Counted from the first letter of the stretch, positions 2,783 to 58,469 are shown. The stretch: DNA of 64,000 nucleotides from Mobula hypostoma (GCF_963921235.1 NC_086097.1:25732001-25796000); one strand, 5' to 3'. The notes: generated by a model from the letters alone, not told the origin. Numbers and translations are program-made.

Positions 2783-4900
2783 TAAGACCATAAGATATAG
2801 GAGCAGAAGTAGGCCATTCAGCCCATCGAGTCTGCTTCGCCATTCAATCATGGGCTGATCCAATCACCCCCACTCCTCTGCTTTCTCCCCATACCCTTTG
2901 ATGCTCCAGCTAATCAAGAACCTATCTATCTCTGCCTTAAATGCACCCAATGACTTGGCCTCCACAGCCACTTGTGGCAACATCTCCCTCCTAAATGGAC
3001 GTCCTTCAATCCTGAAGTTGTGCCCTCTTGTCCTAGACTCCCCTACCATGGGAAATAACTTTGTCATATCTAATCTGTTCAGGCCTTTCAACATGCGGAA
3101 TGTTTCTATGAGATCACTCCCTCATTCTCCTGAACTCCAGAGAATATAGCCCAAGAGCTGCCAGACGTTCCTCATATGGTAACCCTTTCATTCCTGGAAT
3201 CATTCTCGTGAATCTTCTCTGAACCCTCTCCAATGTCAGTATATCCTTTCTAGAATAAGGAGCCCAAAACTGCACACAATACTCTAAGTGTAGTCTCACG
3301 AGTGCCTTATAGAGCCTCAACATCACATCCCTGCTCTTATATTCTATACCTCTAAAAATGAATGCCAACATTGCCTTTGCCTTCTTCACCACTGACTCAA
3401 CCTGGAGGTTAACCTTTAGGCACGTGGCCAAGTGGTTAAGGCATTGGACTAGCGACCTGAAGGTTAAGAGTTCAAGCCCCAGCCGAGGGAATGTGTTGTG
3501 TCCTTGAGCAAGGCACTTAATCACACGTTGCTCTGCAACGACACTGGTGCCAAGCTGTATGGGTCCTAATGCCCTTCCCTTGGACAACATTGGTGTCATG
3601 GAGAGGGGAGACTTGCAGCATGAGCAACTGCTGGTCTTCCACACAACCTTGCCCAGGCCTGCGCCCTAGAGAGTGAAGACTTTCCAGGCACAGATCCATG
3701 GTCTCACAAGACTAACGGATGCCTTTACTTTATCCTGCACAAGGACTCCCAAGTCCCTTTGCATCTCTGCATTCTGAATTCTCTCCCCATCTAAATAATA
3801 GTCTGCCCGTTTATTTCTTTCACTAAAGTGCATGACCATACACTTTCCAACATAGTATTTCATTTCCCACTTCTTTGCCCATTCCCCCAAACTATCTAAG
3901 TCTCTCTGCAGGCTCTCTGTTTCCTCAACACTACCTGCTCCTCCATCTATCTTTGTATCATCAGCAAATCCATTAATCCCATAGTGCAAATCATTGACGT
4001 ACGTTGGAAAAAGCAGTGGTCACAATACCGAACCCTGTGGAACTCCACTGGTAACTGGCAGCCAGCCAGAGTAGGATCCCTTTATTTCCACTCTCTATTT
4101 TCTGCTGATCAGCCAATGCTCTACCCATGCTAGCAACTCCGCTGTAATTCCATGGGATCTTATCTTGTTAAGCAGCCTCATGTGCAGCACCTTGTCAAAG
4201 GCCTTCTGGAAATTCAAGTATACCACATCTACTACATCTCCTTTGTCTACCCGGCTTGCAATTTCTTCCAAAAATTGCAGTAGGTTCGTCAGGCAGGATT
4301 TTCCTTTCAGGAAACCACGCTGGCTTTGGTCTATCTTGTCACGTGCCTCCAGGTACTCCGTAATCTCATCCCTAACAATCGATTCCAACAACTTCCCAAT
4401 CACTGATGTCAGGCTAACAGGTCTATAGTTTCCTTTCTGCTGCCTCCCACTCTTCTTAAATAGTGGACTAGCATTTGCAATTTTCCAGTCATCCAGTACA
4501 ATGCCAGAATCTATCGATTCTTGAAAGATCATCGTCAATGCCTCCACAATGTCTCCAGCTACTTCCTTCAGAACCCCAGGGTGCATTCCATCAGATCCAG
4601 GAGATTTATCCACCCTCAGACCATTAAGCTTCCTGAACACCTTCTCAGTAATAATTTTCACTGCACATGCTTCACTTTCCTGACACTCGAGTGTCCGGTG
4701 TGCTACAGATGTCTTCCACTGTGAAGACTGATGCAAAATACCTATTCAGTTCCTCTGCCATCTTTGCGTCTCTCATTACAATATCTCCAGTGTCATTTTC
4801 TATTCGTCCTATATCTACCTTCAACTCTCTTTTTACCCTTTGTATAATTAAAAAAGCTTTTAGCATCTTCTTTGATATTAGTTGCCAGCTTCCTTTCATA
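2783..4900 (-). mobile_element. CR1 LINE ORF2 (RT) fragment, decayed
   Basis: NYRPVSLTS, GKSCLTNLL, FQKAFDKV, FADDTK and LEYCVQFW motifs in broken ORFs. Confidence 0.92.
3419..3727 (+). repeat. tRNA-derived SINE nested in CR1
   Basis: A box TGGCCAAGTGG and B box GTTCAAGCCC. Interrupts the CR1 reading frame. A related inverted copy lies at ~29250-29460. Confidence 0.75.
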
Positions 4901-9293: not shown

Positions 9294-12200
9294 GGCTACG
9301 TACACACTGGACCGGATAAATCTGTAACCGAAGCTTTTTCTCTTCGTTTTGACCCTCCGTCCACACTGAAACGGCGTTTTCCTCCCCCGAAAATGGAGAT
9401 TTTCAGAAACGCTCTCCAGAGTGAATAAATCTGAAAACGCTTAATATCCAGCGTAGTGTGTACGGGGTAGCCGTCTATTTTTAAAACCGCTGTAATGACG
9501 TGCTGGAACAAATGGTGGCCGCAGCGCGGCATTTCATTGTTTTCATGAACGTAACCTCAAACACCACAACAATATCTGACAATAGATGTGCAGCAGCCTA
9601 CTGCAACGTTATATAGAAATACAAGATAACACTGATGCAGACACGTTTTATACATTTAACAAGGTGCTTTATTAATGTATTGCTTGTGCAAACATTCAAT
9701 AGATGCAATTGTCACTTTTGCCCAGTAACTCATTTTATTGCACATGTTAAATACAGCAAAATAATACACAAAGATATGGCAAAAGTAAAGGCAAGCAAAT
9801 TTCACTTTTGCCCAGTAACAAGCCTTATTGCATTTAGTTGTAGCTGTCATCCCTTTCATCAGTGAAGAGACTATAGCTGTTGGAAATGCTTCTGGACAAA
9901 CGCGCACCAAGTCTTTCGTTTGGTGATGTAAGTTTTTCTAGTCTGTAACTGGACAAACGTGCACCAAGTATACCATTTCCTCTTCACTTGTTTTCTGTGT
10001 GCCCTACACATGCCCAGTAGGAGGAGATTTGCCCAAATATCCATTTTGATGTGGACGGAGGTATTTTTAAAAACGCTTAGTGTGGACGCCTGTCGTTTTT
10101 ACATGAAACCGGCATTTTCAAAATTATCGTCCACACTAATCGTTTTTGAAAATACCTCCGTCCACATTAAAACAGATATTTGGGTGAATCTCCTCCTACT
10201 GGGCATGCGCAGGATACATCTACAGAAAACAAGCGACATGTTTGGTGTCGAATCTCGCTGTGAAAGTGCACGTTTGTGCAGTTACAGACTAGAAAAACTT
10301 AAAAGGAATTGCCGTTGGCTCTCGCGCAGGAGGACTTAAAACTAAAAAAAACAAATACTGGAGTGTATGGAGGCAACCAACAGGGAGTTCAGACAGTATG
10401 ACCCAGCTGACGACGAACATTGAAAAACTGACTAACTCTGTTGCGTTGCACCTTGTTAAATGTATAAAACATGACTGTGTCAATGTTATCTTGTATTTCC
10501 ATACAATGTTACATTAGGCTGTTATACATCTACTGTCAGAAAAGTACTTGCATAAATAAGTAAACCACCTTTTCCAAGCAAGGACAGAAAACAGGGCAAA
10601 GTGTGCTTATTTATTCAGTAAGCTATGGGTCAAAGTATTTGGTGAGTACATTTCTAACACTTCTGGCTTCAGTCTCATTGCCGTCTGTTCTGAAATTGTT
10701 AGGTTTTGTGGGGGGGTTGCGTTCAAGAAAACATGAATTGCCGCACTGCCGCCATCTGTTCCGGCACGTCATGACAGCATTTTCAAAAATATCCGTTTAC
10801 CCCGTCCACACTGCTCTGCACAATCGGCGTTTTCAAATTTACACACTCTAGAGGGCGTTTTAGAAAATCTCCATTTTCCGGGGAGGAAAACGCCGTTTCA
10901 GTGTGGACGGAGGGTCAAAACGAAGAGAAAAAGTTTCGGTTACGGATTATACAGTCTAGACCGGATAATTTTGAAAACGCTGGTTTTGCGTAAAAACGAT
11001 AGGTGTCCACACTAAGCGTTTTTGAAAATACCTCCGTCCACATTAAAATGGATATTTGGGCGAATCTCCTCCTACTGGGCATGCGCAGGACACACAGAAA
11101 ACAAGCGAAGAGGAAACCGTATACTTGGTGCGCATTTGTCCAGTTACAGACTAGAAAAACTTAAAAGGAAATTGCCAAACCAAAGACTTGGTGCATGTTT
11201 GTCCAGAAACATTTCCTACAGCCATAGTCTCTTCACCGATGAAAGGGACCACAGCAATAAGGCTTGTTACTGGGCAAAAGTGAAATCTGCTTGCCTTTAC
11301 TTTTGCCATATCTTCGTATATTATTTTGCTGTATTTAACATGTGCAATAAAATGAGTTACTGGGCAAAAGTGACAATTGCATCTACTGAATGGTTGAACA
11401 AGCAATACATTAATAACTACTACTACAACGTCGACTCAGGCCTAGGGGGCCGGCGTCGGGCACGATGACGAACTCTCCACTTCTCCCTCTGCCTCATCAG
11501 TGTGTTCAGTTCATCTACATTAGCCGCGCCGCTGTCTTCTAGGAGCATGTTGACCATAGTCTTGGGAGGGCGCCCAGGGTTCATCCTCCCGTGCTTGGGC
11601 TCCCATATAATGACTAGGCTGGCAGGTAGCTCGGGGTGGTGTAGACAGTGCCCCGCTAGTTACAGTCTTCTCGCCTCGATTTTAGTGGTGAGCATCAGTA
11701 GGCTGTTATGGAGCTCGACATTCATCATGTGCTGTTGCCAACTCACATCAAGAGCCATCCGGAGCATTTGTGTATAGCAACAATCTGGAGACTTTCACAT
11801 CATCTTGGTGAGTGTCCACGTCTCGCATCCGTATGTGAGAATGGACTCTGTGACTGCTATGAAAATCCTCTTTTTAAGCCCTCTGGTCAGGTTTGACTTC
11901 CCGATTTCCTTCATGTCATTCATAGCCCTCCGCGCCAGCGGCTTCCGTATCTTTATGTCCTTCTCTGAACTCATCATTCTTGACCCTACGTACTTGTAGT
12001 CAAAGACTTTCTTAATGGTATCATTCTCTACGGTCTTGAGAGTACCTTCGTCACAGTTAAATGCCATGTATTCTGTCTTTTTAGCATTTAGGTGAAGTCC
12101 AACTTTATTGCACTCAATTTCCACTTTTGTCAGTAGCTGCTGTGCTTCCTCCATCTGGTCAGAGAGCAGGACTATGTCATCTGCAAAATTGAGATCTGTG

Positions 12201-12520
12201 AGCGTAACTGGTCTGACCCTTTTGGTTCGTCCTAGTTTTATGGTAAAACTTGTCATGATCTTTGGTAGCTTGTCGCAGACCATAATCAAGGACGATTATG
12301 AAGATGTAGGGTGCCAGAGTGTCTCCTTGCAGCACACCAGTTAGGAGCTCGAACACTGCTGTTTCTCCGTCTGGTGATACAATTTTCGCCTTGGTCTTGG
12401 TATAGCTGGACTCTATTGCTCTCAGTAGATGGTCTGGCACTCCATAAGCTTTCAGGATCTTCGGCATTTGACATTAATAAAGCACCTTGTTAAATGTATA
12501 AAACATGTCTGCATCAGTGG
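9294..12520. mobile_element. Three Harbinger-like non-autonomous element copies (one forward, two inverted) inside the LTR element
   Basis: Terminus TTA|GGCTACGTACACACT with repeated GTCCACAC subterminal motifs. 9294-9530 is inverted at 10730-10948; 10010-10128 is inverted at 10129-10205 and 10957-11090; 9635-9905 is inverted at 11151-11415. Confidence 0.65.
11417..12470 (-). mobile_element. 5'-truncated RTE/RTEX-clade LINE
   Basis: GVLQGDTLAPYIF, FADDI and LTYGCETWTL motifs. (TAG)n tail. 10-bp TSD ACATTAATAA at 11407-11416 and 12471-12480. Confidence 0.88.
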
Positions 12521-13829
12521 CAGCAAGTGCATATCGTCTTTGCTGGACCATTCATGGACTCTTTTAATCACCGTTGATGCACATTCCAAACAGCCAGAGA
12601 TCATCAAAATGAAGACAACCACATCAGAAAAGACCATTACAGTGCTGAGGACCATGTTCGCCCGGAATCGCATACCAGAGCAAATCTGCACAGACAATGG
12701 ATGACAATTTGTCTCTGAAGAATTCCAAAGTTTTGTGAAGAACAGTGGAATCAAGCACTTTATATCGGCTCCTTTCCATCCATCCACAAATGGCTTGGTA
12801 GAAAGATTTGTACAGACATTCAAGAAAGCCCTCAAGGCAAGGGACAGCGAAAATCGACCACTACAACACAAGATAGACAGCTTCCTCCTTGCCTATCGTA
12901 ATGCAGTATATGCAACCACTAACCAGACACCAGCGATGATGTTTCTGAACAGGAACCCGAGGTCCCGCATGGATCTTCTCAAACCAAATGTACGGCGTGA
13001 TGTAGAGAACAGACAGTTCAAACACTTGAATGTTAAGTCAACACGGAGCTTCAATATGGGACAGTCAGTTCTTGCACAGGATTACCGGACTGAAAAGTGG
13101 CAGCTGGGTATAATTTCCGCCATAGACGGGCCACTGATGTATAGAGTACAGGTGGGAGAGAATGTATGGAGACGTCATGTGGATCAAATCCTGGATGCTC
13201 GGGTGAAAAACTCAACAACACCTTACCCGGACTCCCATGACATAGAAGCAAACACTCCTGATGTGACCACATCAGCCTCGTCCACAGATAAGCCTGTCAT
13301 CAGTGCTGAGGACCCACTTGATGTACCTGTGGAGACTAATTCCCCAAATCAAACATTGCAGGGCAGACGTTACCCGGAGAGACAGAGAAGGGCCCCCCAC
13401 AGAGACTTCAGTTATACTTATTATTATTACGTTACCTTGTTATAATTTCATATTATTACGTTACTAATTAAACAGTTGGTGGGCGTTTGTATATTAAGGG
13501 TACACATACAGTATTTGTTTAGCATAGTGCCTGTTAACTTTAAAAAAAAAACAGTTGATACACTTTTAAAATAAAAGGGGAGGAGTGTACCATATAGCCT
13601 ACTGTATAATATGGGACTATTTTATGTCGTAGTAACACCTTATTGAGCATGCGCTATTAGGCACGTATTGATCTGTATATATGTGTTCAGTTCGGGTTCC
13701 GCAAGTTTAAAAAAAAACCCTGTTAACTTAGCTCCAGTCTCTAGCGTTTTTATTTATAGATTTGTTGTGTAACCGGCCACATACGCAACAGTCTACCATG
13801 AATGTCTACAAGAAAATGAATCTCAGGAC

Positions 13830-14642: not shown

Positions 14643-15716
14643 TTTCTTTCTTTCTTTCTTTTTAAATCTTTTTATTGAGTAAGTATACAAAAAAGGTAAG
14701 CCATATAAACATTAATACAATGTTAAAGTATAATAAAATTCCAAAAGATAACAATACCAAAAAGAAAATACTACAAACAATGTAATTTAAGCATAAGAAA
14801 CCAAGATAACATAATAGTATACTAGATTTTATATATATCAATGAAAAAAAAAGAAAAAAAACCCCCCAAAAAAAAACCCACCGTGCAACTAACTAAAAGC
14901 AAAGCAAAGCAATGGGCTAACTTGAAACCAAACAGAGTTAAACTTAAAATCACGTCCTCAATCCCGACCTCCATTAAAACAGTGAAAAAAAAACAAGAAG
15001 GGTAAATATTACATTAAATGAAAATATCGAATAAAAGGTCCCCAAATCTGTTCAAATTTAAATGAAGAATCATAAAGGTTACTTCTAATTTTCTCCAGAT
15101 TCAAACATAAAATCGTCTGAGAAAACCAAAAAAAGGTAGTTGGAGCATTAAGCTCTTTCCAATGTTGTAAAATACATCTTTTCGCCATTAAAGTAAGAAA
15201 TGCAATCATTCTACGGGCTGAAGGGGAAAGATTACTAAAAATTTTAGGTAGTCCAAAGATAGCAGTAATAGGGTGAGGAGAGATATCTATATTTAATACC
15301 TTAGAAATAATATTGAAAATATCTCTCCAAAAAGTTTCCAAAGTAGGGCAAGACCAAAACATATGAGTTAAAGAGGCTATCTGCCCCGAACATCTATCAC
15401 AGAAAGGATTAATATGCGAGTAAAAACGCGCTAACTTATCTTTGGACATATGTGCTCTATGAACCACTTTAAATTGAATTAGGGAATGTTTAGCACAAAT
15501 AGAGGAAGTATTAACTAATTGTAAAATCTGCCCCCAATCATCCACAGAAATGGTAAGCCCCGATTCCTGTTCCCAATCTACCCTAATCTTATCAAATGGA
15601 GCTTTCCTAAGTTTCATAATAATATTATAAATCATAGCCGATGCACCTTTCTGACATGGATTAAGGTTAATTATCGAATCTAAAATATATATAGGAGGAA
15701 GCATTGGAAAGGAAGA
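14643..15716 (-). mobile_element. 5'-truncated L1/Tx1-type LINE (ORF2 C-terminus)
   Basis: Open 231-aa frame with a CDRC..HMFWSC zinc knuckle. AATAAA and (GAAA)n tail. 11-bp TSD GGCACACTCTC at 14632-14642 and 15717-15727. Confidence 0.9.
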
Positions 15717-16199
15717 GGCACACTCTCGAACTGTTAGTTCGACCTGTTCTGTTATTGTTAGTACTTGTTTCTTTTTGCCCTACTTCATCTTGAATCAATA
15801 TACAGCAAAAAAAAATACAGTAAGTGCAAAAACTATTCTACATCGGTATAGTTCTGGCACTAGCTGTATTTAATGCCCTATTTATTATTTACCTGTGCAT
15901 AGAGTTTCACACCAGCAAGGAAGTTCATTGCCCCCTGGTGCATATAACAATAAACTAATCTGAACCTAAATCAAAGTCACATTAAATTATCAAAGTACAT
16001 ATGTATTACCTTGAGATTCATTTTCTACAGGCATTTACCGAAAAATAAAGAAACACAATAGAACTATGCATAGATGAAGACTGATAAAGTGCAAAAGAAG
16101 ACAGATTATCCAAATTAAAGTATAAAAATAATATCAAGGACATGAAATGTAAAGAGTTCTTCAAAGCAAGTCTATAAGCCCTGGAATCAGTTCAGAACT

Positions 16200-21367: not shown

Positions 21368-22169
21368 AACAACAGGAATTCTGCAGATGCTGGAAATTCA
21401 AGCAACACACATCAAAGTTGCTGGTGAACGCAGCAGGCCAGGCAGCATCTATAGGAAGAGGCACAGTCGACGTTTCAGGCCGAGACCCTTCGTCAGGACT
21501 AACTGAAGGAAGAGTGAGTAAGGGATTTGAAAGCTGGAGGGGGAGGGGGAGATGCAAAATGATAGAAGACAGGAGGGGGAGGGATGGAGCCGAGAGCTGG
21601 ACAGGTGATAGGCAGAAGGGGATACGAGAGGATCATGGGACAGGAGGTCCGGGAAGAAAGACGGGGGGGGGGTGACCCAGAGGATGGGCAAGAGGTATAT
21701 TCAGAGGGACAGAGGGAGAAAAAGGAGAGTGAGAGAAAGAATGTGTGCATAAAAAAGAGTAACAGATGGGGTACGAGGGGGAGGTGGGGCCTAGCGGAAG
21801 TTAGAGAAGTCAATGTTCATGCCATCAGGTTGGAGGCTACCCAGACGGAATATAAGGTGTTGTTCCTCCAACCTGAGTGTGGCTTCATCTTTACAGTAGA
21901 GGAGGCCGTGGATAGACATGTCAGAATGGGAATGGGATGTGGAATTAAAATGTGTGGCCACTGGGAGATCCTGCTTTCTCTGGCGGACAGAGCGTAGATG
22001 TTCAGCAAAGCGGTCTCCCAGTCTGCGTCGGGTCTCACCAATATATAAAAGGCCACATCGGGAGCACCGGACGCAGTATATCACCCCAGTCGACTCACAG
22101 GTGAAGTGATGCCTCACCTGGAAGGACTGTTTGGGGCCCTGAATGGTGGTAAGGGAGGAAGTGTAAGGG
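21368..22169 (-). mobile_element. 5'-truncated Penelope-like element (GIY-YIG endonuclease and 3' end)
   Basis: GVIYCVRCSRCGLLYIGETRRRLGDRFAEH...QPDGMN in an open frame. Exact 14-bp TSD CATCTCTGCCTGCA at 21354-21367 and 22170-22183. Confidence 0.92.
21465..21500 (-). ncRNA. Minimal type I hammerhead ribozyme motif in the Penelope end
   Basis: Minus strand reads AGUC-CUGACGA-AGG-GUCUCGG-CCU-GAAA-CGUC-GACU. Confidence 0.75.
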
Positions 22170-23239
22170 CATCTCTGCCTGCATTCTGGATCAAAGTCAA
22201 GGCTGAATATCCTGAGATAGCCATGAAAGCACTGAAAACGTTGCTTCCATTTCCAACATATCTCTGCAATGAATGCAACGAAAACTAAATTGCGGAATAG
22301 ACTGGACGTAAGGAACCCCCTTCGAGTATCGCTGTATCCCATCACCCCTTGATAGGACCGTGTTGTTGCAGGAAAACAAGCCCAGGGCTCCCATTGATTC
22401 AGCGATATTGGTGTGTTGCAATGATTTTATATGTTCATACGGGGAAAATATGCGCTGTGTGTTTAATATCCAGATGTTACTTAAAATGTTATGATGCGAT
22501 TGACTTATCACCTATATTCCAGTTGTGATTAACACCCCCTCCCCCGGTCAGCCGGTCTGCAAGAATATTGTCAATATTAAACCGGCCTGCAGTGCAAAAA
22601 CAATTGCGGACCCCTGCTAAGTAGACCTATCAGTTTTCTCTATGGGCGGGCTTTACAGTTGACCCCAAAAATAATGACAGTGTTGCTCGCTGCACTGTTT
22701 GCAAGTGACTTTTCTATTGCCCATGGTGGGTTAAAATGTAAAAGACATGTTGAGGTGAGTTTAACAGGTGTCATTCGTTCATTAGCATAGCTAACGTTAT
22801 TTAAACTAGCTGGCTAGCTGCTAAGGAGCTACGCTATTGATGTCCTACGTGATGAGGCCAAACTCCCTGTAGACTTGCTTAAAGTTGTAATAGAATAAAC
22901 ATGTTAATATAATATATGCACATATTTTAAAGTCACATTTTCTGCATATACCCAACTTGGTTCACAGATTAGACAAAATCACTAAACAAAGTATTACATA
23001 CACCCCTGGAGGTCGACCGTGGGGGGGGGATATGGAGTTGCGGGGGGCGGGGGTACTACCTCCCTGAAATGAGTTTTTGCAGGGTGGGATGTCTGCAACT
23101 CTATCAACCTGAGCAGCAACTTTGAGGATCTATGGATTTGAACCCCAAGGTCCCTGTTTCTCCACACTACTAAGAATCCTGCCATTTACCTTACATTCTG
23201 CCTTCAAATTCAACCTTCCAAAGTAAATCACTTCACACT

Positions 23240-26225: not shown

Positions 26226-26596
26226 GGGAAGAAACCAAATTATTTATCACCCCCTTACCCTTTTATTCCGGCTTTTGCCTTCTTCCTGTGTTCCAAGGAC
26301 AATATTCCTAACCTTTCTAATTTAATATAGCCTAAGTCCTCTTTGCCTCTCCGTATACTTCCCCAGAAATCCACAAGAGCCCTCTGCCAGGGCAATGCAG
26401 GCCGATCCCAGCAATGGAGAGGTGCTGCTCTTGGCACCTACTGAATGTGTTGGCATCCCAGACAGTGCATAGCAAGCTGTCGATCTGGTCATACTCTCTT
26501 CTCCCCGCTTCCATGGGGCAGAAGATACAAAAGTTTGAGAAAATATGCAACCAGGATAATGGAAGGCTTCTGTCCTGCTGTTATAAGACTCTTAAG

Positions 26597-27270
26597 GGTG
26601 TATGGGGTGTCAGGGAGGGGTAGCACCTCTAATGGGGAAACATGTTGCGTCCTTTTCAAGGCAGTTAGTCCACATTTGGTCCCCACCTGGCACTCAGCTC
26701 TCACCTGTGGCTCCCCGTAGGTGTTTGCATGCGATAGTGGCCACACCCCGGGCAACGGCTTCAACAGGCCAGCTAAACCAGGTGAGGGTAACCGACGGGT
26801 CTCAAACCCTCAGTGAGATAGGGAGTTGTCTATCCCAGCATGTGAAGACAGACTCCAACGGATTGAGCGAACGAGACCAATGGAAGGTCCAACAGTCAAG
26901 AAGGCGGTCTCTGCAAGCGTCGTGGAACGTATAGAGCAGGACAAGATACAGAAGATGTCTTGGTCATCCTCTGCACCTAGTCCCTTTTCCAGCCATCTCG
27001 GCTCTTGTCTTGCCACTGGATCCAGATGGGAATTGGGAAGAGAGAGTGAGGCTGACGCTGCACAACTCTCCCTCACTTAAATCCAAATCAAGCGCTAGTC
27101 TCAACACCATCAAGCAAGCTGGTGGCGTAGTGGCATCAGCGCTGGACTTCGGGGCGAGAGGTCTCTTGCACGCTCTCTATTCGTGCTGGGTTGAGCATCG
27201 AGCTAGCAACTCGACCTCGTAAAAAGTACCAATGGTGTCGAGGTCTTCATTGATGACGATGAATGAACCT
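26597..27270 (+). mobile_element. Non-autonomous retroposon (probably RTE-dependent) with 5' HDV-like ribozyme and an internal tRNA-like segment, copy 1
   Basis: Colinear inverted copy at 29480-30180. (GAT)-like tail. No coding capacity recognised. Confidence 0.65.
26604..26786 (+). ncRNA. Candidate HDV-like self-cleaving ribozyme
   Basis: P1 GGGGTGT/ACACCCC, P2 CTCACCTG/CAGGTGAG, P3 GGC/GCC, L3 starting TCCCCGT, then GGGCAAC, P4 GGCTT/AGGCC and J4/2 GCTAA, all in canonical order. Confidence 0.6.
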
Positions 27271-28850
27271 GGTATCATACACCATTAAGAAAGCTCACCG
27301 ACACCTCTGCTTTCTGAGGAATCTGAAGAGAGCTGGACAATGCAAATTCTTCTTCTACAGATATGCAGTAGAGAACATCTTAACATGCTGCATCACTGCT
27401 GTGGAAACTGGAAGGCTCTACAGCAGGTAGTCAAAACCACCCAAACCATCACCAGCATCAGCCTACCTGCCACCAAGGACATACAGTTTATACAGACAGG
27501 TGCCAGAAAAGGGTCAGTAACATAATGAAGGATCCCTCCCCACCCTGCTCATGGACTGTTTGTCCAACTTTCAACAGGGAGGAGGCTACGTGGCATCCAA
27601 GCCAGGACCACCAGACTCAAAAGCAGTTATTTTCCCCAAGCAGTAAAGCTAATTAACACCTCCACCCACTTACCCACCACTCCACACCCCTCATCACCAC
27701 TTCTTTATCATTAGTCACCATAAGCTCAGAGTCACCTTATGTACAGACACTCCTGTGCCTAGCATCACTTTGTGGACATGCAATCAGCCTATGTATATAA
27801 GCTATCTTATTCACATTTATTGTGTCTTTGTGGCGGAGTACCAATTATTTCATTCTCCTTTACAGTTGTGTATTGGAAATGACGTTAAGCAATCTTGAAT
27901 CTTGTAGTGTATATGATAAACACAAACCTTTAATTTCTCACTCTACCTCAACATAATCGTTACACTTTAGGTGTCCCCATCTGCCCGGCACATTCTCTGG
28001 AATATAACACTATATTTTTCATTCTGTTTTGCCTGGAAGGAATGTCGTGATGAATTGATCTGTGTGGATGGCATACAAACAGAGCTTTTCGCTGAACCTC
28101 GGTACGGGTGACAATAAGAAGCCAGTTGCCAGATATTTTGTTACAGAACATAATCAATGCCCAAGTTTCTATATTTAGAAGCTGAAAACAAGGAAAAGCA
28201 GTAGTTACCTGTCCATTACACTATTACCATTTATGGATGCCTGCTATGGTCAAACTGGACACCAATTTTCCTACATCACCGCACATGCTACATTTCCAAA
28301 GCTCTTCAATGACTATAAACTTTCTTAAGACGTTGTGAGATCCTTAACTTCAAAGTAAATTTATAATTAAAGTGCGTATATGCAGCACTGCCTGGTATGG
28401 AGGGGCTACTGCACAGGATCAGAAAAAGCAGCAGAAATGTGTAAACTCAGCCAAGACCATCATGGACATTAGCCTCCCCAGCATCCAGGACACATCCAAG
28501 AGGTGATTCCTCAAAAAGGCGGTATCCATCATTAAGGACCCCCATCACTCAGGACATGTCCTTGTCTCATTGCTACCTTCAAGGAGGTGGTACAGGAGCC
28601 TGAAGACAAACACTCAACGTTTCAGGAACTGCTTTTTCCCCTCTGCCATCAGATTCTAAATGGACAATGAACCCATGAACACTTCTTCAGTATATTCCCT
28701 CTCTTTCTGCACTACTTACTTAATTCATTTTTCACATATACTTATTGTAATTTATAAATTTTATTACAGTACTATGTATTTCCATTGTACTGCTGCCACA
28801 AAGCAACAAATTTTATGACATATGCCGGTGATATTAAAACTGATTCTGAT
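27270..28850 (+). mobile_element. Rex1/Babar-like LINE 3' fragments (27270-27900, 28385-28850)
   Basis: Reverse-complement similarity to 62085-62835. Confidence 0.65.
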
Positions 28851-29479
28851 ATAGTACCATATACTACCTTGAAATTCATTTTCTTGGAGGCATTTGCAGT
28901 AAAATAAAGGAATACAGTTGAATTTATGGGAAAAATAACTATACTCAAACTAAGACTGACAACCAATCAATGTGCAAAAGGCAAATTGTGTAAATATAAA
29001 AAATAAATAATACTGAGAACATGAGTGGTAGAGTCTTTGAAAGTGAGTCTGTAGGTTGTAGAATCCATTCAGAGTTGTGGTGACTAAAGTTATCCATGCC
29101 CGTTCAATAATCTGATGATTGTAGGATACAAAATGTTCCTGAACCTGGTGCTTTGAATTGATTTGACTTTATTTCTTACATCCTTCACATACTTGGGGAG
29201 TAAAAATCTTTATGTTATGTCTCTGTCTAAAAGTGCAATGTGCAATTTATAGTAGTAGGCAGCCATCAATCCTGGAGATCATGGGTTTGCGCCTCTGGTG
29301 GCCTGTGTCCTCTCCAGGGCGCAACCCTGGGTGGGAAGATTTGGGGAACCGGCTGTTGCCCATGCAGTGGGATCCCCCTCTCCATGTCTCTGATGTAGTC
29401 CAAGGGAAGGGTAAGCACTGATACGGCTTGGCACCAGTGTCGCCACAGAGGTTGCCAGAGGGAACATCAATAATAATAA

Positions 29480-30180
29480 GGTTCATCCATCGTCATCCAT
29501 GAAGGCTTCGACAACATAACTACTTTTTTTTTACCAGGCCGAGTTGCGAGTTCAACACGCAACCCGGCACGGATGGAAATTGTGCCTCGGAGCGGCCTGA
29601 CTGGATTCAAACCCGGGAACCTTCACTCCAGAGTCTGGCGCTGATGTCACTGCGCCACCAGCTGGCTTGATGGTGCCAAGACTAGTGCTTGATTTGGATT
29701 TAAGTGAGGGAGAGTTGCGCAGCGTCAGCCTCACTCTCTCTTCCCAATTCCCATCTGAATCCAGTGGCAAGACAAGAGTCAAGACAGCTGGAGATGGGAC
29801 TAGATGCAGTGGATGACCAGGACATCTTCTGTGTCTTGTCGTGCTCTACACGTCCCACGACGCTTGCAGTGACCATCTTCTTGACCATTGGACCTTCCAT
29901 TGGTCTCGTCCGCTCAATCCACTGGAGTCTGTCTTCACATGCTGGGATAGACAACTCCCTATCTCACCGAGGGTTTGAGACCCATCGGCTACCCTCAGCT
30001 GGTTTAGCCGGTTTGTCGAAGCCGTTGCCTGGGGTGTGGCCGCTGTCGCATGCAAACAGCTACGGGGAGCCACAGGTGAGAGCTGAGTGCCAGGTGGGGA
30101 CCAAAGGTGGACAAACCGCCCTGAAAAGGAGGCAACATGTTCCCCCACCAGAGATGCTACCCCTCCCTGACATCCCATAC
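29480..30180 (-). mobile_element. Copy 2 of the HDV-like-ribozyme retroposon
   Basis: Inverted, colinear homolog of 26597-27270. The spurious ORF translations are nearly identical. Confidence 0.7.
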
Positions 30181-30184
30181 TCTC

Positions 30185-30560
30185 CGGTAAACATCAAACT
30201 GCCTTAGGGACCACGGCTCCAGATTTCTTCCTCGGGATTTACCCCAGAAGCCTTTCGCATGGGTGGGTATGGCCACAAGGCAGCGGACGTTCAAAATCAG
30301 AGTTTTCCTTCTCCTAGGTGGGCTGCCGTCTAGGGCAGATGAGCCCCACCTGCCCGAAGGAACTGGTTTTGAGGCACCAGTGGTCCGCCTTACCCCTTCT
30401 CTTGTCAGTAGAAATGGTTCCGCCAGGCCTAGTAGCTAAGCCACACGTGAAGGCCAAGAGTTGGACTTGGTTGTCAGAGGCTGTTAGAGTCGCATGCCAT
30501 TTGGAGCACTTTATAGGTAGTGGGAGATTATCCCCACTACCACCCTGGCTATGACAACCT
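30185..30560 (-). repeat. Second non-coding retroposon family (RTE-5'UTR-like); related copies at 41520-42030 (-) and 54220-54600 (+)
   Basis: Shared blocks such as GGCCTTCACGTGTGGCTTAG (with 41520-42030) and CCCTAAGGCAG (with both). Confidence 0.55.
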
Positions 30561-31850: not shown

Positions 31851-33360
31851 CTGTACCTCGTGCCCAAAGGTAATAGCGAGAAGAGAACATGGCCTGGATC
31901 GTGGGGGACCTTGATAATGGATGCTGCTTTCTTGTAGCAGGGCTTTTGCAAATAGAAATCTTGCCTTGAATTTTATAAGATCCAAATTCACTAAAAGGCA
32001 AAATAGTCAAGGGTCTGCCCATCCTCTGATGGATTGTATAGTGTACTGTAGATTATATACTGTAGATTATATAATTCTGCATCAGTTAACGCAAGGAGTA
32101 ACCCGACTAGTAACAGAGTGATGTGAGCAAACAAAACTGGATCCTTTATAAATTCAGTTAAAAACTTAGAATTTGGGAGGAAAACACCAGAAGGTCTGAG
32201 TGATAATGACCATGCAAACTGAAAATTTCTCATCAAAACCAACCTGGTTCACAGGTGACCATCCCAGCCAATATAGAAACATAGAAAACCTACAGCACAA
32301 TACAGGCCCTTCAGCCCACAAAGTTGTGCCGAACGTGTCCTACCTTAGAAATTACTAGGCTTACCCATAGCCTTCTATTTTTCTCTTAAAAGACCCTATG
32401 GTATCCGCCTCCACCACCGTTGCCAGCAGCCCATTCCACGCGCTCACCACTCTCTGCGTAAAAAACTTAATCCTGACATCTCCTCTGTACCTACTCCCTA
32501 GCATCTTAAACCTGTGTCCTCTTGTGGCAACCATTTCAGTCCTGGGAAAAAGCCTCTGTCTATCCACACGATCAATCCACACGTCACCTTATACACCTCT
32601 ATCAGGTCACCTCTCATCCTCCGTCGCTCCAAGGAGAAAAGGCCGACTTCACTCAACCTGTTTTCATAAGGCATGCTCTCCACTCCAGGCAACATCCTTG
32701 TAAATCTCCTTTGCACCCTTTCTATGGTTTCCACATCCTTCCTGTAGTGAGGCGACCAGAACTGAGCACTGTACACCAAGTGGGGTCTGACCAGGGTCCT
32801 ATATACAGTAGCTGCAACATTACCTCTTGGCTCCTAAATTCAATTCCATGATTGATGAAGGCCAGTACACCGTATGCCTTCTTAACCACAGAGTCAACCT
32901 GCACAGCTGCTTTGAGCGTCCTATGGACTCGGACCCCAAGATCCCTCTGATCCTCCACACTGCCGAGAGTTTTACTATTAATACTATATTCTGCCATCAT
33001 ATTTGACCTACCAAAATGAACCACTTCACGCTTTCCTGGGTTGAACTCCATCTGCCACTTCTCAGCCCAGTTTTGCATCCTATCAATGTCCTGCTGTAAC
33101 CTCTGACAGCCCTCCACACTATCCACAACACCTCCAACCTTTGTGTCCTCAGCAAACTTACTAACCCATCCCTCCGCTTCCTCGTCCAGGTCATTTATAA
33201 AAATCACGAAGAGTAAGGGTCCCAGAACAGATCCCTGATGCACTCCACTGTTCATTGACCTCCATGCAGAATATGACTCGTCTACAACCACTCTTTGCCT
33301 TCTGTGGGCAAGCCAATTCTGGATTCACAAAGCAATGTCCCCTTGGATCCCATGCCTCCC

Positions 33361-33821
33361 ATGATGTCTTCTATCCAGCTGTGGTCACCGACTGTGACCC
33401 CTCCGTTCCGGATACGACCGTTCTTCCACAGTGAACCTGGCACCCAGGCAAGGGCGGACACACACACCAGGTTCCCACCGATCGTACCTTTTCACCCTGT
33501 GAGTCTATGGTCGGTTCCCGCAAACCGGACCTCCAAACTCTCACGGGGGCACACCGCTCTTCCAGGGTCTCGTTATCTCGTGATCTTGTGGTGTGTCCGT
33601 GCCTAGCAAACCTGTTCTTTTTATCCCCCTGCTGGGGTATCGCCTGTCCATCAAACTTCAAACAGTTCAGGTTCAAAGCAACCGGTCCGTCAATATTCTG
33701 AATTGTGTTTCTTTTCTGTTAAACTCTCTCTCCTCTCTCATTAACATTTTGAATGTTTCGCCATTGTCTCCCTTATCTCTCTCATTAGCATCAATCATCT
33801 GATAACTTGGTTTGGCGTCAC
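33361..33821 (-). mobile_element. Truncated LTR-like sequence at a CR1 deletion junction
   Basis: Begins TGTGACGCC on the minus strand. It is non-CR1 sequence joining two non-contiguous CR1 parts. Confidence 0.45.
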
Positions 33822-33930
33822 AATAGAGAATACTGAAGTAAAGTATTCATTAAGTACCTCTGCTATTTCCTCCAGTTCCATATACACTTTCCCACTATCA
33901 CACTTGATAGGTCCTATTCTTTCACGTCTT

Positions 33931-34720
33931 ATAGAAACATAGAAACATAGAAAATAGGTGCAGGAGTAGGCCATTCGGCCCTTCGAGCCTGCACCGCCAT
34001 TTATTATGATCATGGCTGATCATCCAACTCAGAACCCCACCCCAGCCTTCCCTCCATACCCCCTGACCCCCGTAGCCACAAGGGCCATATCTAACTCCCT
34101 CTTAAATATAGCCAGTGAACTGGCCTCAACTGTTTCCTGTGGCAGAGAATTCCACAGATTCACCACTCTCTGTGTGAAGAAGTTTTTCCTAATCTCGGTC
34201 CTAAAAGGCTTCCCCTCTATCCTCAAACTGTGGCCCCTCGTTCTGGACTTCCCCAACATCGGGAACAATCTTCCTGCATCTAGCCTGTCCAATCCCTTTA
34301 GGATCGTATACGTTTCAATCAGATCCCCCCTCAATCTTCTAAATTCCAACGAGTACAAGCCCAGTTCATCCAGTCTTTCTTCATATGAAAGTCCTGCCAT
34401 CCCAGGAATCAATCTGGTGAACCTTCTTTGTACTCCCTCTATGGCAAGGATGTCTTTCCTCAGATTAGGGGACCAAAACTGCACACAATACTCCAGGTGT
34501 GGTCTCACCAAGGCCTTGTACAACTGCAGTAGTACCTCCCTGCTCCTGTACTCGAATCCTCTCGCTATAAATGCCAGCATACCATTCGCCTTTTTCACCG
34601 CCTGCTGTACCTGCATGCCCACTTTCAATGACTGGTGTATAATGACACCCAGGTCTCGTTGCACCTCCCCTTTTCCTAATCGGCCACCATTCAGATAATA
34701 ATCTGTTTTCCTATTTTTCT
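33931..34720 (-). mobile_element. Young 5'-truncated CR1 nested in an older CR1
   Basis: Uninterrupted 211-aa C-terminal ORF2 frame and a (TTTCTATG)n tail. Confidence 0.88.
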
Positions 34721-35758
34721 AATTTTATTATCCTCTTGCTCTTCATATACTTGTAGAATGCCTTGGGGATTTCCTTAATCCGGCCCGCCATGGCCTTCTC
34801 ATGGCCCCTTCTGGTTCTCCTAACTTCCTTCTTAGGCTCGTTCCTGTTAGCCTTATAATCTTCGAGATCTTTAACATTACCTCGCTCTCTGAACCTTTTG
34901 TATGCTTTTCTTTTCTTCCTGTCTAGATTTATTACAGCTTTTGTACACCGTGGTTCCTGTACCCTGCCATAACTTCCCTGTCTCATTGGAATGTACCTAT
35001 GCAGAACTCCACACAAATATCCCCTGAATATTTGCCACATTTCTTCCGTACTTTTCCCTGAGAACATCTGTTCCCAATGAAAGTTTCCAATTTCCTGCCT
35101 GATAGCCTCATAATTCCCCTTACTTCAATTAAACGCTTTTCTAACTTGTCTGTTCCTATCTCTCTCCAATGCTATTGTAAAGGAGATAGAATTATGATCA
35201 CTGTCTCCAAAATGCTCTCCCACTGAGAGATATGACACCTGACCAGCTTCATTTCCCAATACCAAATCAAGTACAGTCTCTCCTCTTGTAGGCTTATCTA
35301 CATATTGAGTCAAGAAACCTTCCTGAACACACCAAACAAACTCCACCCCATCTAAACCCCTTGCTCTAGGGAGATTCCAATCGATATTTGGGAAATTAAA
35401 ATCTCCCACCATGACAAATCTGTTATTATTACACCTTTCCAGGATCTGTTTCCCTATCTGCTCCTCGATATCCCTGTTACTATTGGGCGGCCTATAAAAA
35501 ACACCTAGTAAAGTTATTGACCCCTTCCTGTTCCTAACCTCCACCCACAGAGACTCTGTAGACAATCCCTCCATGACGTCCACCTTTTCAGCAGCCGTGA
35601 CACTATCTCTGAACAACAGTGCTACGCCCCCACCTCTTTTGCCTCCCTCCCTGTCCTTTCTGAAACATCTAAAACCCGGCACTTGAAGTCACCAATCCTG
35701 TTCCTGAACCATCCAAGTCTCCGTAATGGCGACCACATCATAGCTCCAAGTACTATGT

Positions 35759-37004: not shown

Positions 37005-39467
37005 TTATGTAATACTTAATACTTTAAGATCTTTCGTGCACTGGTTACATTGTGCAAAATTCATCTCCCAACTTTCAATTCCTACCAGTCTTCTGCAAGT
37101 CCTACGGCGATGGGGGAGTGGCGAAGCAACAGGTGGAGGTGACCACTGGGAGTTGTAGTCACAAACCCGCACGTAGGCTGCCTTTGGACAAGTGGTCGTT
37201 CTTCTCTGTACCCAGGGCAGCAGAGGGGTCCGGCAGCACCAATGGCGACTGAGCAGCCCTTTTCAGGACAGCACTGCTCACCCTTTGATAGGGAGAGGCC
37301 TAGAAAAGGTGGTTAATCATTGCCTGCCCTACAGACAGATAACTGGCCAGCTTGCCGCGGCTGGCAGTTCATCCGCCAATGCGGTTACACTCAAAAGAGA
37401 AGAAAGAAACTTCTGTTAGGATCATGGACTGTCCGCACACTCATGGACAGAGAGCACTCAGCAGGACCCCAAAGAAGAACAGCCCTTGTTGCCAAGAAAC
37501 TTTCACGCTACAACATCAACATCGCAAGTGAAACCAGGCTTGCAGAGGAAGGATCCCTGACTGAAACCACCAGCGGCTACACTTTCTTTTGGAAGGTAAA
37601 AGCGCAATATGAAGAGAGGATTCATGGAGGTTGATTTGCAGTCAAGTCCAGCTTCCTGAAACAACTCTCCGACCTGCCCGTGGGAATCAATGAAAGGCTT
37701 ATGTGGCTACGTCTGCCCCTCAGCCACAAATGTCACGCAACAGTCATCAGCGCTTATGCCCCCACTGTGACCAGCAAATACAAGACCACTGAACAGTTCT
37801 ACTCCGACCTTAGCTCTGTTCTGCGCTCAGTCCCTGCCAACGACAAACTAATCCTGCTCGGTGACTTCAATGCCCAAGTAGGCTGCGATCACAGTTGCTG
37901 GGAAGGGGTTCTAGGCAAACATGGTATTGGCAATATGAACAGCAATGGCCTCCTGCTCCTTAGCAAATGTGCAGAATACGACCTCCTCATCAAGAACACA
38001 GTGTTCAGGCTGGCGAACAAGTACAACACAACATGGATGCACCCAAGATCCAAACATTGGCACATGATTGACTACGTTATAGTACATTGCTGAGACATCC
38101 GGGATGTCCTCATCACCAGAGCCATGCGAGGAGCAGAGTGCTAGACTGACCACAGGCCACATTGAAGCTACATATTGCTCCCCACCATCCCAAGCGCCTT
38201 AAGTTCATCAGAACAGCTTTTCACACCACCAAGAGCCACTATATCTTTGCAAGTTCCAGACCACCCGTGATGAGAAGCTGTCTGCCAATGGACCACGAAC
38301 TGATGGGCCAACCCAGAAGTGGAATCAGTTTAGAGAGATGGTGACGGAGACAGCAAAATCATGCTGTTAAGGACCTAGACCTGGGTATTTACATAAGATA
38401 TCGCCTAGACGGATCAATGTTTGACCTGAGACGCCTTGCTGCAAAGACCAAAACGTTGAGGAGGCTCATCACTGAAGCCCTGTTTGCTGACGACTGTGCT
38501 CTCATGGCCCACCAGGAGAGCCACCTGCAGACGATTGTCAGCAAGTTCTCTGCAGCCTCAAAGCTGTTCAGTCTGACAATCAGCCTCGGTAAGACAGAAG
38601 TTCTCCTACAACCTGCACCAAACAGTCACCCTCCTCAGCCATGCATCACCATCGACGGCACTGTCCTGAAGAATGTGGAGAGTTTTAAGTATCTAGGAAG
38701 CACCATCTCCAGTGACGGATCCCTTGACAAAGCGATCATAGCAAAGATCCAGAAAGCCAGCCAGGCACTCGGGAAACTCCATGTCGAAGCTCTGGAGCAC
38801 AAGGACATTCAGCTTTCAACCAAGCTCAAGGTGTACAAGGCTGTGGTCCTCACCTCTCTCCTGTACGGCTGTGAAACCTGGACCCTGTACTGCAGGTACA
38901 TCAAACAGCTGGAACCGTTTCACATGCGCTCCCTGCGGTCGATCATGAGAATTCGATGGCAAGACCGAACACCAACCAGGAAGTCCTTGACAGAGCCAAC
39001 AGCACAAGCATTGAGGCAAGGATCCTGCAGGCCCAGCTACACTGGACTGGCCATGTAATCCACATGGGTGAAGCAAGAATCCCCAGGCAGCTGCTCTACA
39101 GTGAGCTTGAGCATGGCAGTTGCAATCAGGGCTGCCCCAAAAAAAGATTTAAAGACAATCTGAAGTCGTACATCAAATGGGCAGACTGCCAGCCTCAACA
39201 ACTTGAGGAGTCCACAGCCGACAGGGCTGTGTGGCATGCCCTGACCAGAAAAGCTGCATCTGACTTTGAGGATGACCGAAATCAGCACCTTGCAGCAGCA
39301 CGAGACTGACACCACAAAGCTGTGTGTGCACCTATTCTAACAACCGCCATTCCATGTCCAACCTGCAACCGCATGTGTGCTTCGGCCTTTGGCCTCCGAA
39401 GCCAACTGCGTATCCACAGATGACTGCACAATGTTTAGTCTTCCTCGGACCCCGAGAGACAACCACC
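37005..39467 (+). mobile_element. RTE (BovB-like) LINE with both ends and a large internal deletion
   Basis: APE motifs GSWTVRTLMD, ISAYAPT, LGDFNAQVG and TWMHPRSKHWHMIDY. RT C-terminal motifs LFADDCAL, FKYLGS and LLYGCETWT. Exact 32-bp TSD at 36973-37004 and 39468-39499. Confidence 0.92.
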
Positions 39468-57169: not shown

Positions 57170-58469
57170 TACCCCTCATAATTTTGTATGCCTCTATCAA
57201 ATTCTCTCTCATTCTCCTCTGCGCCGGGGGGAAAAAGTCCTAATCTATCCAACCTTCACCATTAACTCAGGTCCTCAAAACCCAAAAACATTCTTGTAAA
57301 TCTTCAATCTTATTGATAGCTTTCCTGCAGTTAAGTGACCAGAACTGCACACAGTACTCCAAATTCGTAACAATCTTTTTATAACATCCCAACTCCAGTG
57401 CTCACTACGTTGATTTATGAAAGCTAATGTGCCGAAAGCTCTCTTTACGACCCTATCTGTCTGCTGGTGATGCAACTTGCAAGGGATTATGGATCTGTAT
57501 TCCCATGGGGAAAGGAGAGACTATAGTCTTCTGTAGACTCTCCATTTAAAAAATGTTTTGTGTAATGGGGTAGGTATTTAAAAATATCTTACCCATTTTA
57601 TCAAAGTGGACACCCTCACATTTCTCCATGTTATACTCCAGGGTAGTGAAGTAGACATACATCCCTAAAAAAAAGGTGTAGGGCGCTTCCTTCCGCTAGC
57701 CTGCAGGTCACCCTTGGTCAAGGTGTAGCACATAATTATCCCTCTCTGCTCCCCCCCCCCCGCCATGGATCAGAGTCATGTGAAGCCATGGGAATAGGTG
57801 GTGTGTGGCCATATGAGCAGGTGATACACATCACACATTCTGGTTATGCAACCACTGACACTGAAGAGTATTGATAATGGCTGGGGCCGCCCATCTTGTA
57901 AAGACATTGCCCAGAAGAAGACGATGGCAAACCCTTTCTGTAAAAAAATTTGCCAAGAAAAATCATGGTCATGGGAAGACCATGATCACCCACATCATAA
58001 AACACAGCACATAATGAAAGAACAAATATTCTATTGCCATATAGCTGCCCACTTACTTAATCTATCTACATCCCTCTGCACACTCTTCACTTCCTCTGCA
58101 CAAATTAATATCCAGTTTGCCAAATGCAGCATACTTCCTAAGAATATAAGATTCCACAGATGTGGACTTTCAGGAAGAAGGTGTCAGGATAGGAAACAGG
58201 CTTTGAGTTTGATACAGTGAGAGTGCAGAGTGCCCTGCTCATAGAGGTTGGAAGATAAAGGGAGAGGGAAGGAAAGGAACTGTCAATGTTTTGGACTGAA
58301 ATCTGAATCAGTCCTTACCGCCCAAACCACATAATGACTGAAACGCCAAAGGAACATGAAAATGTGTGATAAGAAAAACGTACAACATTGATCTGATGGC
58401 TTACTTGCCCTATGGGAGATATTTTTTATTCTGAAGAATGATTATCTTATCAGTAAAGAGTATATCAGG

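Follow-up and report, generated by a model that had tools for sequence, protein, structure and literature searches.

The subject of this analysis is a retroposon in the genome of Mobula hypostoma and the structured module at its 5' end, both found in a 64,000-nucleotide (nt) window (GCF_963921235.1 NC_086097.1:25732001-25796000, with positions counted from the start of the window). The module spans about 190 nt (26595-26786) at the 5' terminus of the element, and it can be written as a nested double pseudoknot in which P1, P2, P3, P1.1, and P4 follow the canonical order of the ribozyme from hepatitis delta virus (HDV) and the 3' strand of P3 abuts the 3' strand of P1. We give a probability of roughly 0.6 to the reading that this module is a real HDV-like ribozyme, active at least ancestrally, that cuts at the first G of the element. 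The predicted cleavage site that we favor is the first base of the element (26595) rather than G26604, the site proposed in an initial annotation of the window; the ends of the element, covariation in a related copy, and a hairpin that fills the segment between P1 and P2 (J1/2) all back this choice.

The retroposon is non-coding, about 560-675 nt long, and flanked by target-site duplications (TSDs). The host genome (3.48 Gb in 200 contigs) yielded at least 6,562 first-look candidates in a search with a 561-nt query, and all 40 of the 40 candidates scored matched at E<=1e-218. Copy 1 (26595-27270, plus strand) is delimited by alignment ends, TSDs, and a 3' end reading ...GAACCT; it belongs to family A, in a form with an insert resembling a tRNA-derived short interspersed nuclear element (SINE). 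Copy 2 (29477-30185, minus strand) is about 90% identical to copy 1, and the initial annotation was right both about its existence and about the placement of the fold at the 5' end of a high-copy, TSD-flanked, non-coding element. Translations of five stop-to-stop frames across the element matched nothing in Pfam at E<=0.001 (a match of one frame to DUF746, at E = 0.049, fell short of this cut-off). Both copies are decayed: position 26595 is A in copy 1, where most other copies have the first G, and in copy 2 the first repeat of the 5' end reads GGAGAGT, P1.1 reads AG, and the 3' strand of P2 reads CAGCTGAG. With mutations in P1, P1.1, P2, or the L3 hairpin, the two window copies are fossils. 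Comparison extends over three families: the young family A, the older family B of the same genome, and a single copy on a metagenome contig (L061).

The boundaries of the element are sharply defined at both ends. Alignments to 28 of the 29 other fetched genomic copies begin at 26591-26599 (exactly at 26596 in 16), and most fetched copies end at 27270. TSDs of at least 9 nt are present in 17 of the 22 copies with complete 3' ends; the duplications are 10-15 bp long, and the insertion sites are AT-rich and dispersed. The TSD ends between -3 and +4 of 26596 in 15 of these 17 copies and at -9 in the other two, and no TSD among them ends at the second repeat of the 5' end. The first G is kept in 25 of 31 family-A rows despite unrelated flanks, four further copies begin identically, and contigs from a separate data set lose similarity just before 26596, after the G. 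Some copies have untemplated bases (g, tg, or ttg) between the TSD and the element. The 3' end often precedes a short T/A-rich tail, and 5'-truncated copies are present (L054, L058). These TSDs, 5' truncations, and defined 3' tails are marks of target-primed reverse transcription, and the first base of the putative ribozyme (G1) falls on the element's 5' end.

At its 5' end the element reads GGGGTGT-AT-GGGGTGT and starts 9 nt upstream of G26604, so that the P1 strand is duplicated. The initial annotation, which drew P1 from the inner repeat, had recorded about 4 nt in common upstream of G26604; the common stretch is actually 8-9 nt, (G)GGGTGTAT, which repeats the P1 strand and is where the element really begins. 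Neither the proposed cut at G26604 nor a clustering of element ends there agrees with these boundaries, for the retroposed RNA begins 9 nt upstream.

Every pairing listed in the initial annotation was found on reading the sequence over 26300-27500. The 5' strand of P1 is proposed to be the first GGGGUGU repeat (26595-26601, on the plus strand like the rest of the module; AGGGTGT in copy 1, where only the second repeat is intact), and the 3' strand is ACACCCC (26743-26749), to which GGGGTGT at 26604-26610 is also complementary. P2 combines the 5' strand CUCACCUG (26700-26707, with two further pairs possible from 26698) with the 3' strand CAGGUGAG (26779-26786), CTCACCTG and CAGGTGAG being complementary over these coordinates. 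P3 consists of GGC (26709-26711) and GCC (26740-26742), the latter running directly into the 3' strand of P1. The GG of P1.1 (26750-26751), complementary to C26713 and C26714 in L3, and the joining strand GCAA occupy 26750-26755. The P4 hairpin (26756-26771) has 5 bp in copy 1 (GGCTT 26757-26761 with AGGCC 26766-26770) and 6 clean bp, CGGCUU/AAGCCG, in the majority sequence of the family. The J4/2 strand (26772-26778) reads GCUAAAC and contains the putative catalytic C26773.

The second GGGGUGU repeat (26604-26610) is assigned to the stem that closes a hairpin, with a partner at 26686-26695, both in the minimum-free-energy (MFE) fold of the near-consensus copy L018 and in the RNAalifold consensus. 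The resulting closed domain (26605-26695), comparable to a "P1.2"-type peripheral domain, fills J1/2, with 3 nt separating it from P1 and 1-3 nt from P2. By MFE folding, RNAalifold, and covariation, the "long J1/2" of the initial annotation is no loose linker but a closed hairpin that contains the very strand formerly assigned to P1. In this model, the inner P1-strand copy seems to have been put to new use, as a clamp for J1/2. A T-to-C change in the second repeat (GGGGCGT) occurs in 7 of 31 family-A copies (L003, L007, L008, L009, L016, L020, and L021); it is probably a subfamily marker and gives a C-A mismatch in the closing stem, a change that a peripheral stem of 10 bp would accommodate more readily than P1.

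The most unusual part of the fold is L3. It is 28 nt long (26712-26739; 27 nt in L061), as initially annotated, and consists of U-C-C-C-C-G-U-A, a hairpin, and then G; the 5-bp internal helix pairs 26720-26724 with 26734-26738, and its loop (26725-26733) contains GCATGC. The short closed loop of HDV-like ribozymes is therefore absent, and L3 as modeled is in effect an asymmetric internal loop of an 8-nt strand (U-C-C-N-N-G-U/A-A), a 5-bp helix, and one G. The helix is degraded in copy 1 (GGTGT/ATAGT), whereas the family majority has GCTGT/ACAGC. Taking the L3 hairpin for P3 was rejected as an alternative, since the 3' strand of P3 would then no longer abut that of P1 and the loop would lack the CC for P1.1. 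The GCATGC in the hairpin loop is self-complementary and is present in the majorities of families A and B, at the same place in L018 and L036, and in L061 (around 580-590); such a palindrome could allow loop-to-loop pairing between two RNAs.

Conservation across the three families centers on the putative fold. Family B copies share about 70-74% identity with the copy that served as query and have the same architecture as family A; L061 is about 76% identical to family A over 440 nt. Family B came to light through L006, where a family-A copy is inserted directly 3' of an older family-B copy (oriented 944-1496). Scans of genome contigs and of viral contigs gave no further relatives, and an L061 query against the Mobula genome itself returned family-A copies only. 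All three families keep P2, P3, the L3 hairpin GCUGU/ACAGC with its GCAUGC loop, the GG of P1.1, and GGCUAAA; the L3 hairpin that the initial annotation had pointed out is thus conserved throughout. The J4/2 motif GGCTAAAC is identical in the majorities of families A and B, and L061 has GGCTAAA. Within L3, U1, C2, C3, and G6 are constant, and positions 4-5 vary between families (CC, AA, UC). Five copies (L008, L015, L022, L062, and L064) have UCCUCG instead of UCCCCG, the same letters as L061, and may represent another subfamily. Between the majorities of families A and B, identity over the first five 40-nt bins is 0.97, 0.56, 0.95, 0.90, and 0.88, the low second bin being the tip of the J1/2 hairpin; it is 0.35-0.85 over nt 200-560 and 0.00-0.10 per bin beyond nt 560, where family A has a secondary insert without counterpart in B. 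To judge by these alignments, the fold core is the best-conserved part of the element.

Pairing was counted over 55 sequences, which are neutral fossils of three families only. Overall, 89.3% of cells are paired, compared with 31-49% when the partners are slid. P2 (93.6%), P3 (97.5%, essentially invariant), and the L3 hairpin (96.3%) are almost always paired, and the 27 pairs of the J1/2 hairpin are paired in 92.8% of cells. In P1.1, column 132-170 is CG in 51 of 54 cells and column 133-169 in 34; the losses in the latter look like CpG decay, and P1.1 shows no covariation. Compensatory changes are few. In P4, family A has G-C as the second pair where family B has C-G (GC 24, CG 12), and the J1/2 hairpin has two family-level compensatory pairs (GC 31 / AU 23 and AU 29 / GC 17). 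In L061 the 3' strand of P1 reads ACCUCCC, and the first repeat, GGGGGGC, restores the fifth pair (from U-A to G-C) for six contiguous pairs (column 5-153: UA in six sequences, GC in one). The second repeat of L061, GGGGUGG, mismatches this strand (column 14-153: UA in five, unpaired in two). The P1 covariation, which comes from this single copy, suggests that the first repeat is the true P1 strand. The covariation that the initial annotation asked for is partial, with one pair in P4 and one in P1 (in L061 and for the first repeat only) and none in P2, P3, or the L3 hairpin.

The conserved letters can also be compared with published requirements for HDV-like ribozymes. R2-type ribozymes have a P1 of 6-7 bp starting from the G at the cleavage site and a P2 of at least 5 bp (PMC3774820). 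The module has a P1 of 7 bp (GGGGUGU/ACACCCC) or, in L061, 6 bp, and a P2 of 8-10 bp, which agree with these lengths. A U-G reverse wobble in L3 and a catalytic C together with a constrained A are likewise required (PMC3774820), and the A three bases after the catalytic C contacts P3 (PMC13635239). U1 and G6 of L3 and the GCUAAA of J4/2 are present in families A, B, and L061; the retention of GGCUAAA and of the U and G in L3 matches both requirements (PMC3774820, PMC13635239).

The mechanism favored here would begin with a copy inside a host transcription unit that is transcribed by read-through. The family A module contains a TTTT run, which would hamper RNA polymerase III, and from this we infer read-through by polymerase II. 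In the transcript, the first seven bases of the element (GGGGUGU) would pair with ACACCCC to form P1, the 26605-26695 hairpin with its duplicated GGGGUGU would fill J1/2 and clamp the outer ends of P1 and P2, and P2, P3, P1.1, and P4 would complete the fold. C26773 of the invariant GCUAAAC would then act as general acid in a cut just 5' of the first G. The freed RNA, with its exact 5' end, would be copied to new sites by a partner long interspersed nuclear element (LINE) that recognizes the 3' tail (...GATGGACGAACCT), and this LINE-driven insertion would leave the 10-15 bp TSDs. A bolder version of this model, which we put forward tentatively and would not expect to hold in full, describes a new structural subclass, active in vivo, in which L3 is opened by a "P3.1" helix stacking on P3, GCAUGC loops kiss between two element RNAs, the duplicate P1 strand serves as J1/2 clamp, and self-cleavage defines the 5' ends of thousands of copies in a 3.5-Gb animal-type genome.

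Several observations weigh against a catalytic module. P1, P2, P3, and the L3 hairpin are nearly invariant, so the fold rests mostly on conservation, and the P1 covariation comes from one copy in one contig. The MFE stability of the natural copies folded is ordinary (z = -0.67 and -1.05). RNAalifold prefers a nested 6-bp helix, GUGGCU/GGCCAC, that takes two bases of the 3' strand of P1 and one of P2. The pair at the predicted cleavage site is G-C, whereas that of HDV is a G-U wobble, and the internal helix of L3 could disturb the active site. In the literature searched, the coverage of which was incomplete, there was no active HDV-like ribozyme with an L3 of about 28 nt holding a helix, although one may be known to specialists; the same incomplete search gave no HDV-like ribozyme in a comparable vertebrate-type SINE.

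A relaxed descriptor (7-bp P1 with G-U allowed, J1/2 of at most 120 nt, L3 of 7-35 nt, 6-bp P2, 4-bp P4, and C.A in J4/2) matched three times in the window, as against a mean of 5.9 in 12 dinucleotide shuffles. Matches at this level mean that the mere placeability of the HDV elements is not significant. The other relaxed-descriptor sites, 33471-33554 and 29520-29650 (both on the minus strand), are taken as chance, with shuffles giving about six per window. A strict descriptor (all-Watson-Crick 7-bp P1 and 8-bp P2, 5-bp P4, U1 and G6 in L3, and C.AA in J4/2) matched this site only in the window and had no match in 28 shuffles; it was tuned post hoc, after the site was seen. Extrapolation from the relaxed descriptor puts its chance rate at roughly 1e-5 per window, a figure that cannot be neglected when very many windows are scanned. 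The descriptor allowing a long L3, proposed as a check in the initial annotation, thus gives a unique match in strict post hoc form and chance-level matches in relaxed form, and the case must therefore rest on context and comparison. Rfam gave no match at the gathering threshold over the window, no HDV-type match at E<=10 over 26400-27000 (only two chance-level miRNA matches), and no match at E<=1 in the near-consensus copies L018 and L020 or in L061. These negatives carry little weight, because HDV-type models cannot represent pseudoknots or two such long inserts.

The same observations lend some strength to a different account, which we consider unlikely although it fares best among the alternatives: the conserved 5' module would be a non-catalytic structured leader or an internal promoter, with the HDV matches coincidental and the 5' end set by transcription initiation. 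The true structure would then be two long hairpins, one at 26605-26695 and one made of P2, an extended P3, and L3, with P4 as a side arm. Such a nested fold alone explains most pairs, and RNAalifold picks the extended P3 over P1; the relaxed descriptor is at chance, the strict estimate is as given above, Rfam has no match, and the L3 insert departs from the known family. Conservation of the 5' end would also fit an internal promoter, and the L1Tc 5' element is both promoter and ribozyme (PMC3383444, PMC3185411), so that promoter constraint could explain the conservation. Against a leader of this kind, GGCUAAA, ACACCCC-GG, and the U-C-C...G of L3 are single-stranded in the nested model, yet they are conserved like stems. 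P1 starts exactly at base 1 of the element, and its 3' strand and the first repeat changed together in L061. Repeated copying of a cap would, moreover, be predicted to make the 5' G run grow, and no such growth is seen.

An improbable third account holds that the ribozyme worked in an ancestor, perhaps at the 5' end of the partner LINE, and that the L3 insertion or later changes inactivated it, with families A and B spreading by other means. The L3 insert is without precedent that we know of, divergence is 8-28% in the two window copies and in every copy seen, and the roughly 270 kb of sequence covered held no autonomous partner sharing this 5' end. All three families nevertheless keep the L3 hairpin and the core, and two of them amplified to thousands of copies at different times, which speaks for the hairpin-bearing module as the form that worked. 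Very little probability attaches, finally, to a ribozyme as initially drawn, with P1 from the second repeat (26604-26610), J1/2 as a long linker, and a cut 5' of G26604: the second repeat is equally complementary to ACACCCC in families A and B and is the one intact in copy 1, and R2 offers documented cases of alternative P1 strands accompanied by a shift in cleavage site (PMC3774820), yet a cut at G26604 loses the first 9 nt that copies keep, the second repeat of L061 mismatches the 3' strand of P1 where the first compensates, the second repeat serves as the 5' strand in a hairpin with a covarying tip, and the mid-repeat T-to-C change looks like that of an amplified subfamily tolerating it.

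If the ribozyme reading is true, a very abundant, non-coding, dispersed retroposon joins the elements in which self-cleavage, and not a promoter, fixes the 5' end, and the element offers a clean natural case of the P1-duplication route to a cleavage-site shift proposed for R2. Searches for HDV-like ribozymes usually use descriptors that fix L3 at 7-8 nt; if the module is active with its L3 helix, such searches miss part of the HDV-like family, and structural biologists gain a natural test of how much an active-site loop tolerates. If it is inactive, what is left is a well-defined family of repeats whose structured 5' leader is conserved.

The remainder of the element and its surroundings contain other mobile sequences. 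The secondary insert of family A (27114-27232, plus strand, about 119 nt) has motifs resembling box A and box B with an A-run after them, is tRNA-SINE-like, and is missing in one subfamily: L018 and L027 run directly from 27113 to the 3' tail, and contigs from three of four sequencing runs join 27110-27112 to 27230-27234, skipping the insert. Its appearance is that of a tRNA-derived SINE inserted into a master copy; ARAGORN called no tRNA gene in it, and Rfam gave no match. An open frame of 55 aa (27263-27430, plus strand) lies directly after copy 1, is absent beside copy 2, and is unrelated to the retroposon; it looks like the tail of another repeat. The window consists mostly of repeats, and the retroposon is surrounded by a mosaic of reverse transcriptase (RT), endonuclease, integrase, and GIY-YIG fragments. 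LINE fragments on the minus strand (endonuclease 35125-35685, RT 32722-33321) lie upstream of copy 2 on that strand; no tail in common with the retroposon was seen in these fragments (32722-35685). Also present are a GIY-YIG domain (Penelope-like?; 21791-22423, minus), an integrase core (12705-13442, plus), a zinc-binding RT tail (15009-15776, minus), and three more RT fragments (4095-4742, minus; 11795-12292, minus; 38345-39055, plus). The RT, endonuclease, and GIY-YIG fragments in the window show no link to the retroposon. A partner LINE was also sought: the tails from the 3' ends of both families matched only known copies (the window and 58 loci, about 270 kb), and a degenerate tail motif matched both copies and 57920-57933 (two mismatches) in the window, three matches against 1.96 expected, which is chance level.

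Among known systems, HDV itself resembles the module in its letters: the helix order is the same, P3 has 3 bp, P1.1 has two G-C pairs, L3 has U-C-C and G6, and the catalytic C is followed by N-A-A. HDV-like ribozymes have a short closed L3 of about 7-8 nt. The module differs from HDV in its 28-nt L3, its J1/2 of about 95 nt, the G-C at the putative cleavage site, and the lack of an HDV-type Rfam match. The Pr77 sequence of L1Tc and NARTc in trypanosomes is similar in position, an HDV-like ribozyme within the first bases of both autonomous and non-autonomous elements (PMC3185411, PMC3383444, PMC4035085). Pr77 is 77 nt long and doubles as a promoter, whereas the module here is about 190 nt. Ribozymes of the mosquito drz-Agam-2 group resemble the module in having a helix that closes J1/2 beside P1 and P2, and a J1/2 helix that pinches P1 and P2 together activates large HDV-like ribozymes (PMC4908430). 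Unlike in that group, the domain here is about 90 nt long, with a closing stem derived from a duplicated P1 strand. We know of no L3 insert in drz-Agam-2-type ribozymes.

A further likeness is to R2 and its relatives. Unlike R2, the element here is dispersed at AT-rich sites with 10-15 bp TSDs rather than located in 28S rDNA, no open reading frame was found in it and no partner in the roughly 270 kb searched, and its module has an extra L3 helix and a second P1 copy built into the J1/2 hairpin. HDV-like ribozymes sit 5'-terminally in R2, R4, L1Tc, and RTE elements (PMC3774820). As in R2 and R4-Dong, where a double-pseudoknot ribozyme at the extreme 5' end frees the element RNA from a co-transcript (PMC3774820), the same role is predicted here. 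Non-autonomous, internally deleted R2 derivatives keep the ribozyme (PMC3774820, PMC3414825), and a large J1/2 is common to both systems, that of R2 reaching up to 498 nt (PMC3774820). The untemplated g, tg, or ttg at the 5' junctions here resemble the variable junctions of R2 elements in which the RNA is cut at the element's own end (PMC3774820). Both systems, finally, have duplicated P1 strands at the 5' junction, and in the model for R2 this duplication shifts the cleavage site (PMC3774820, Figure 8 legend).

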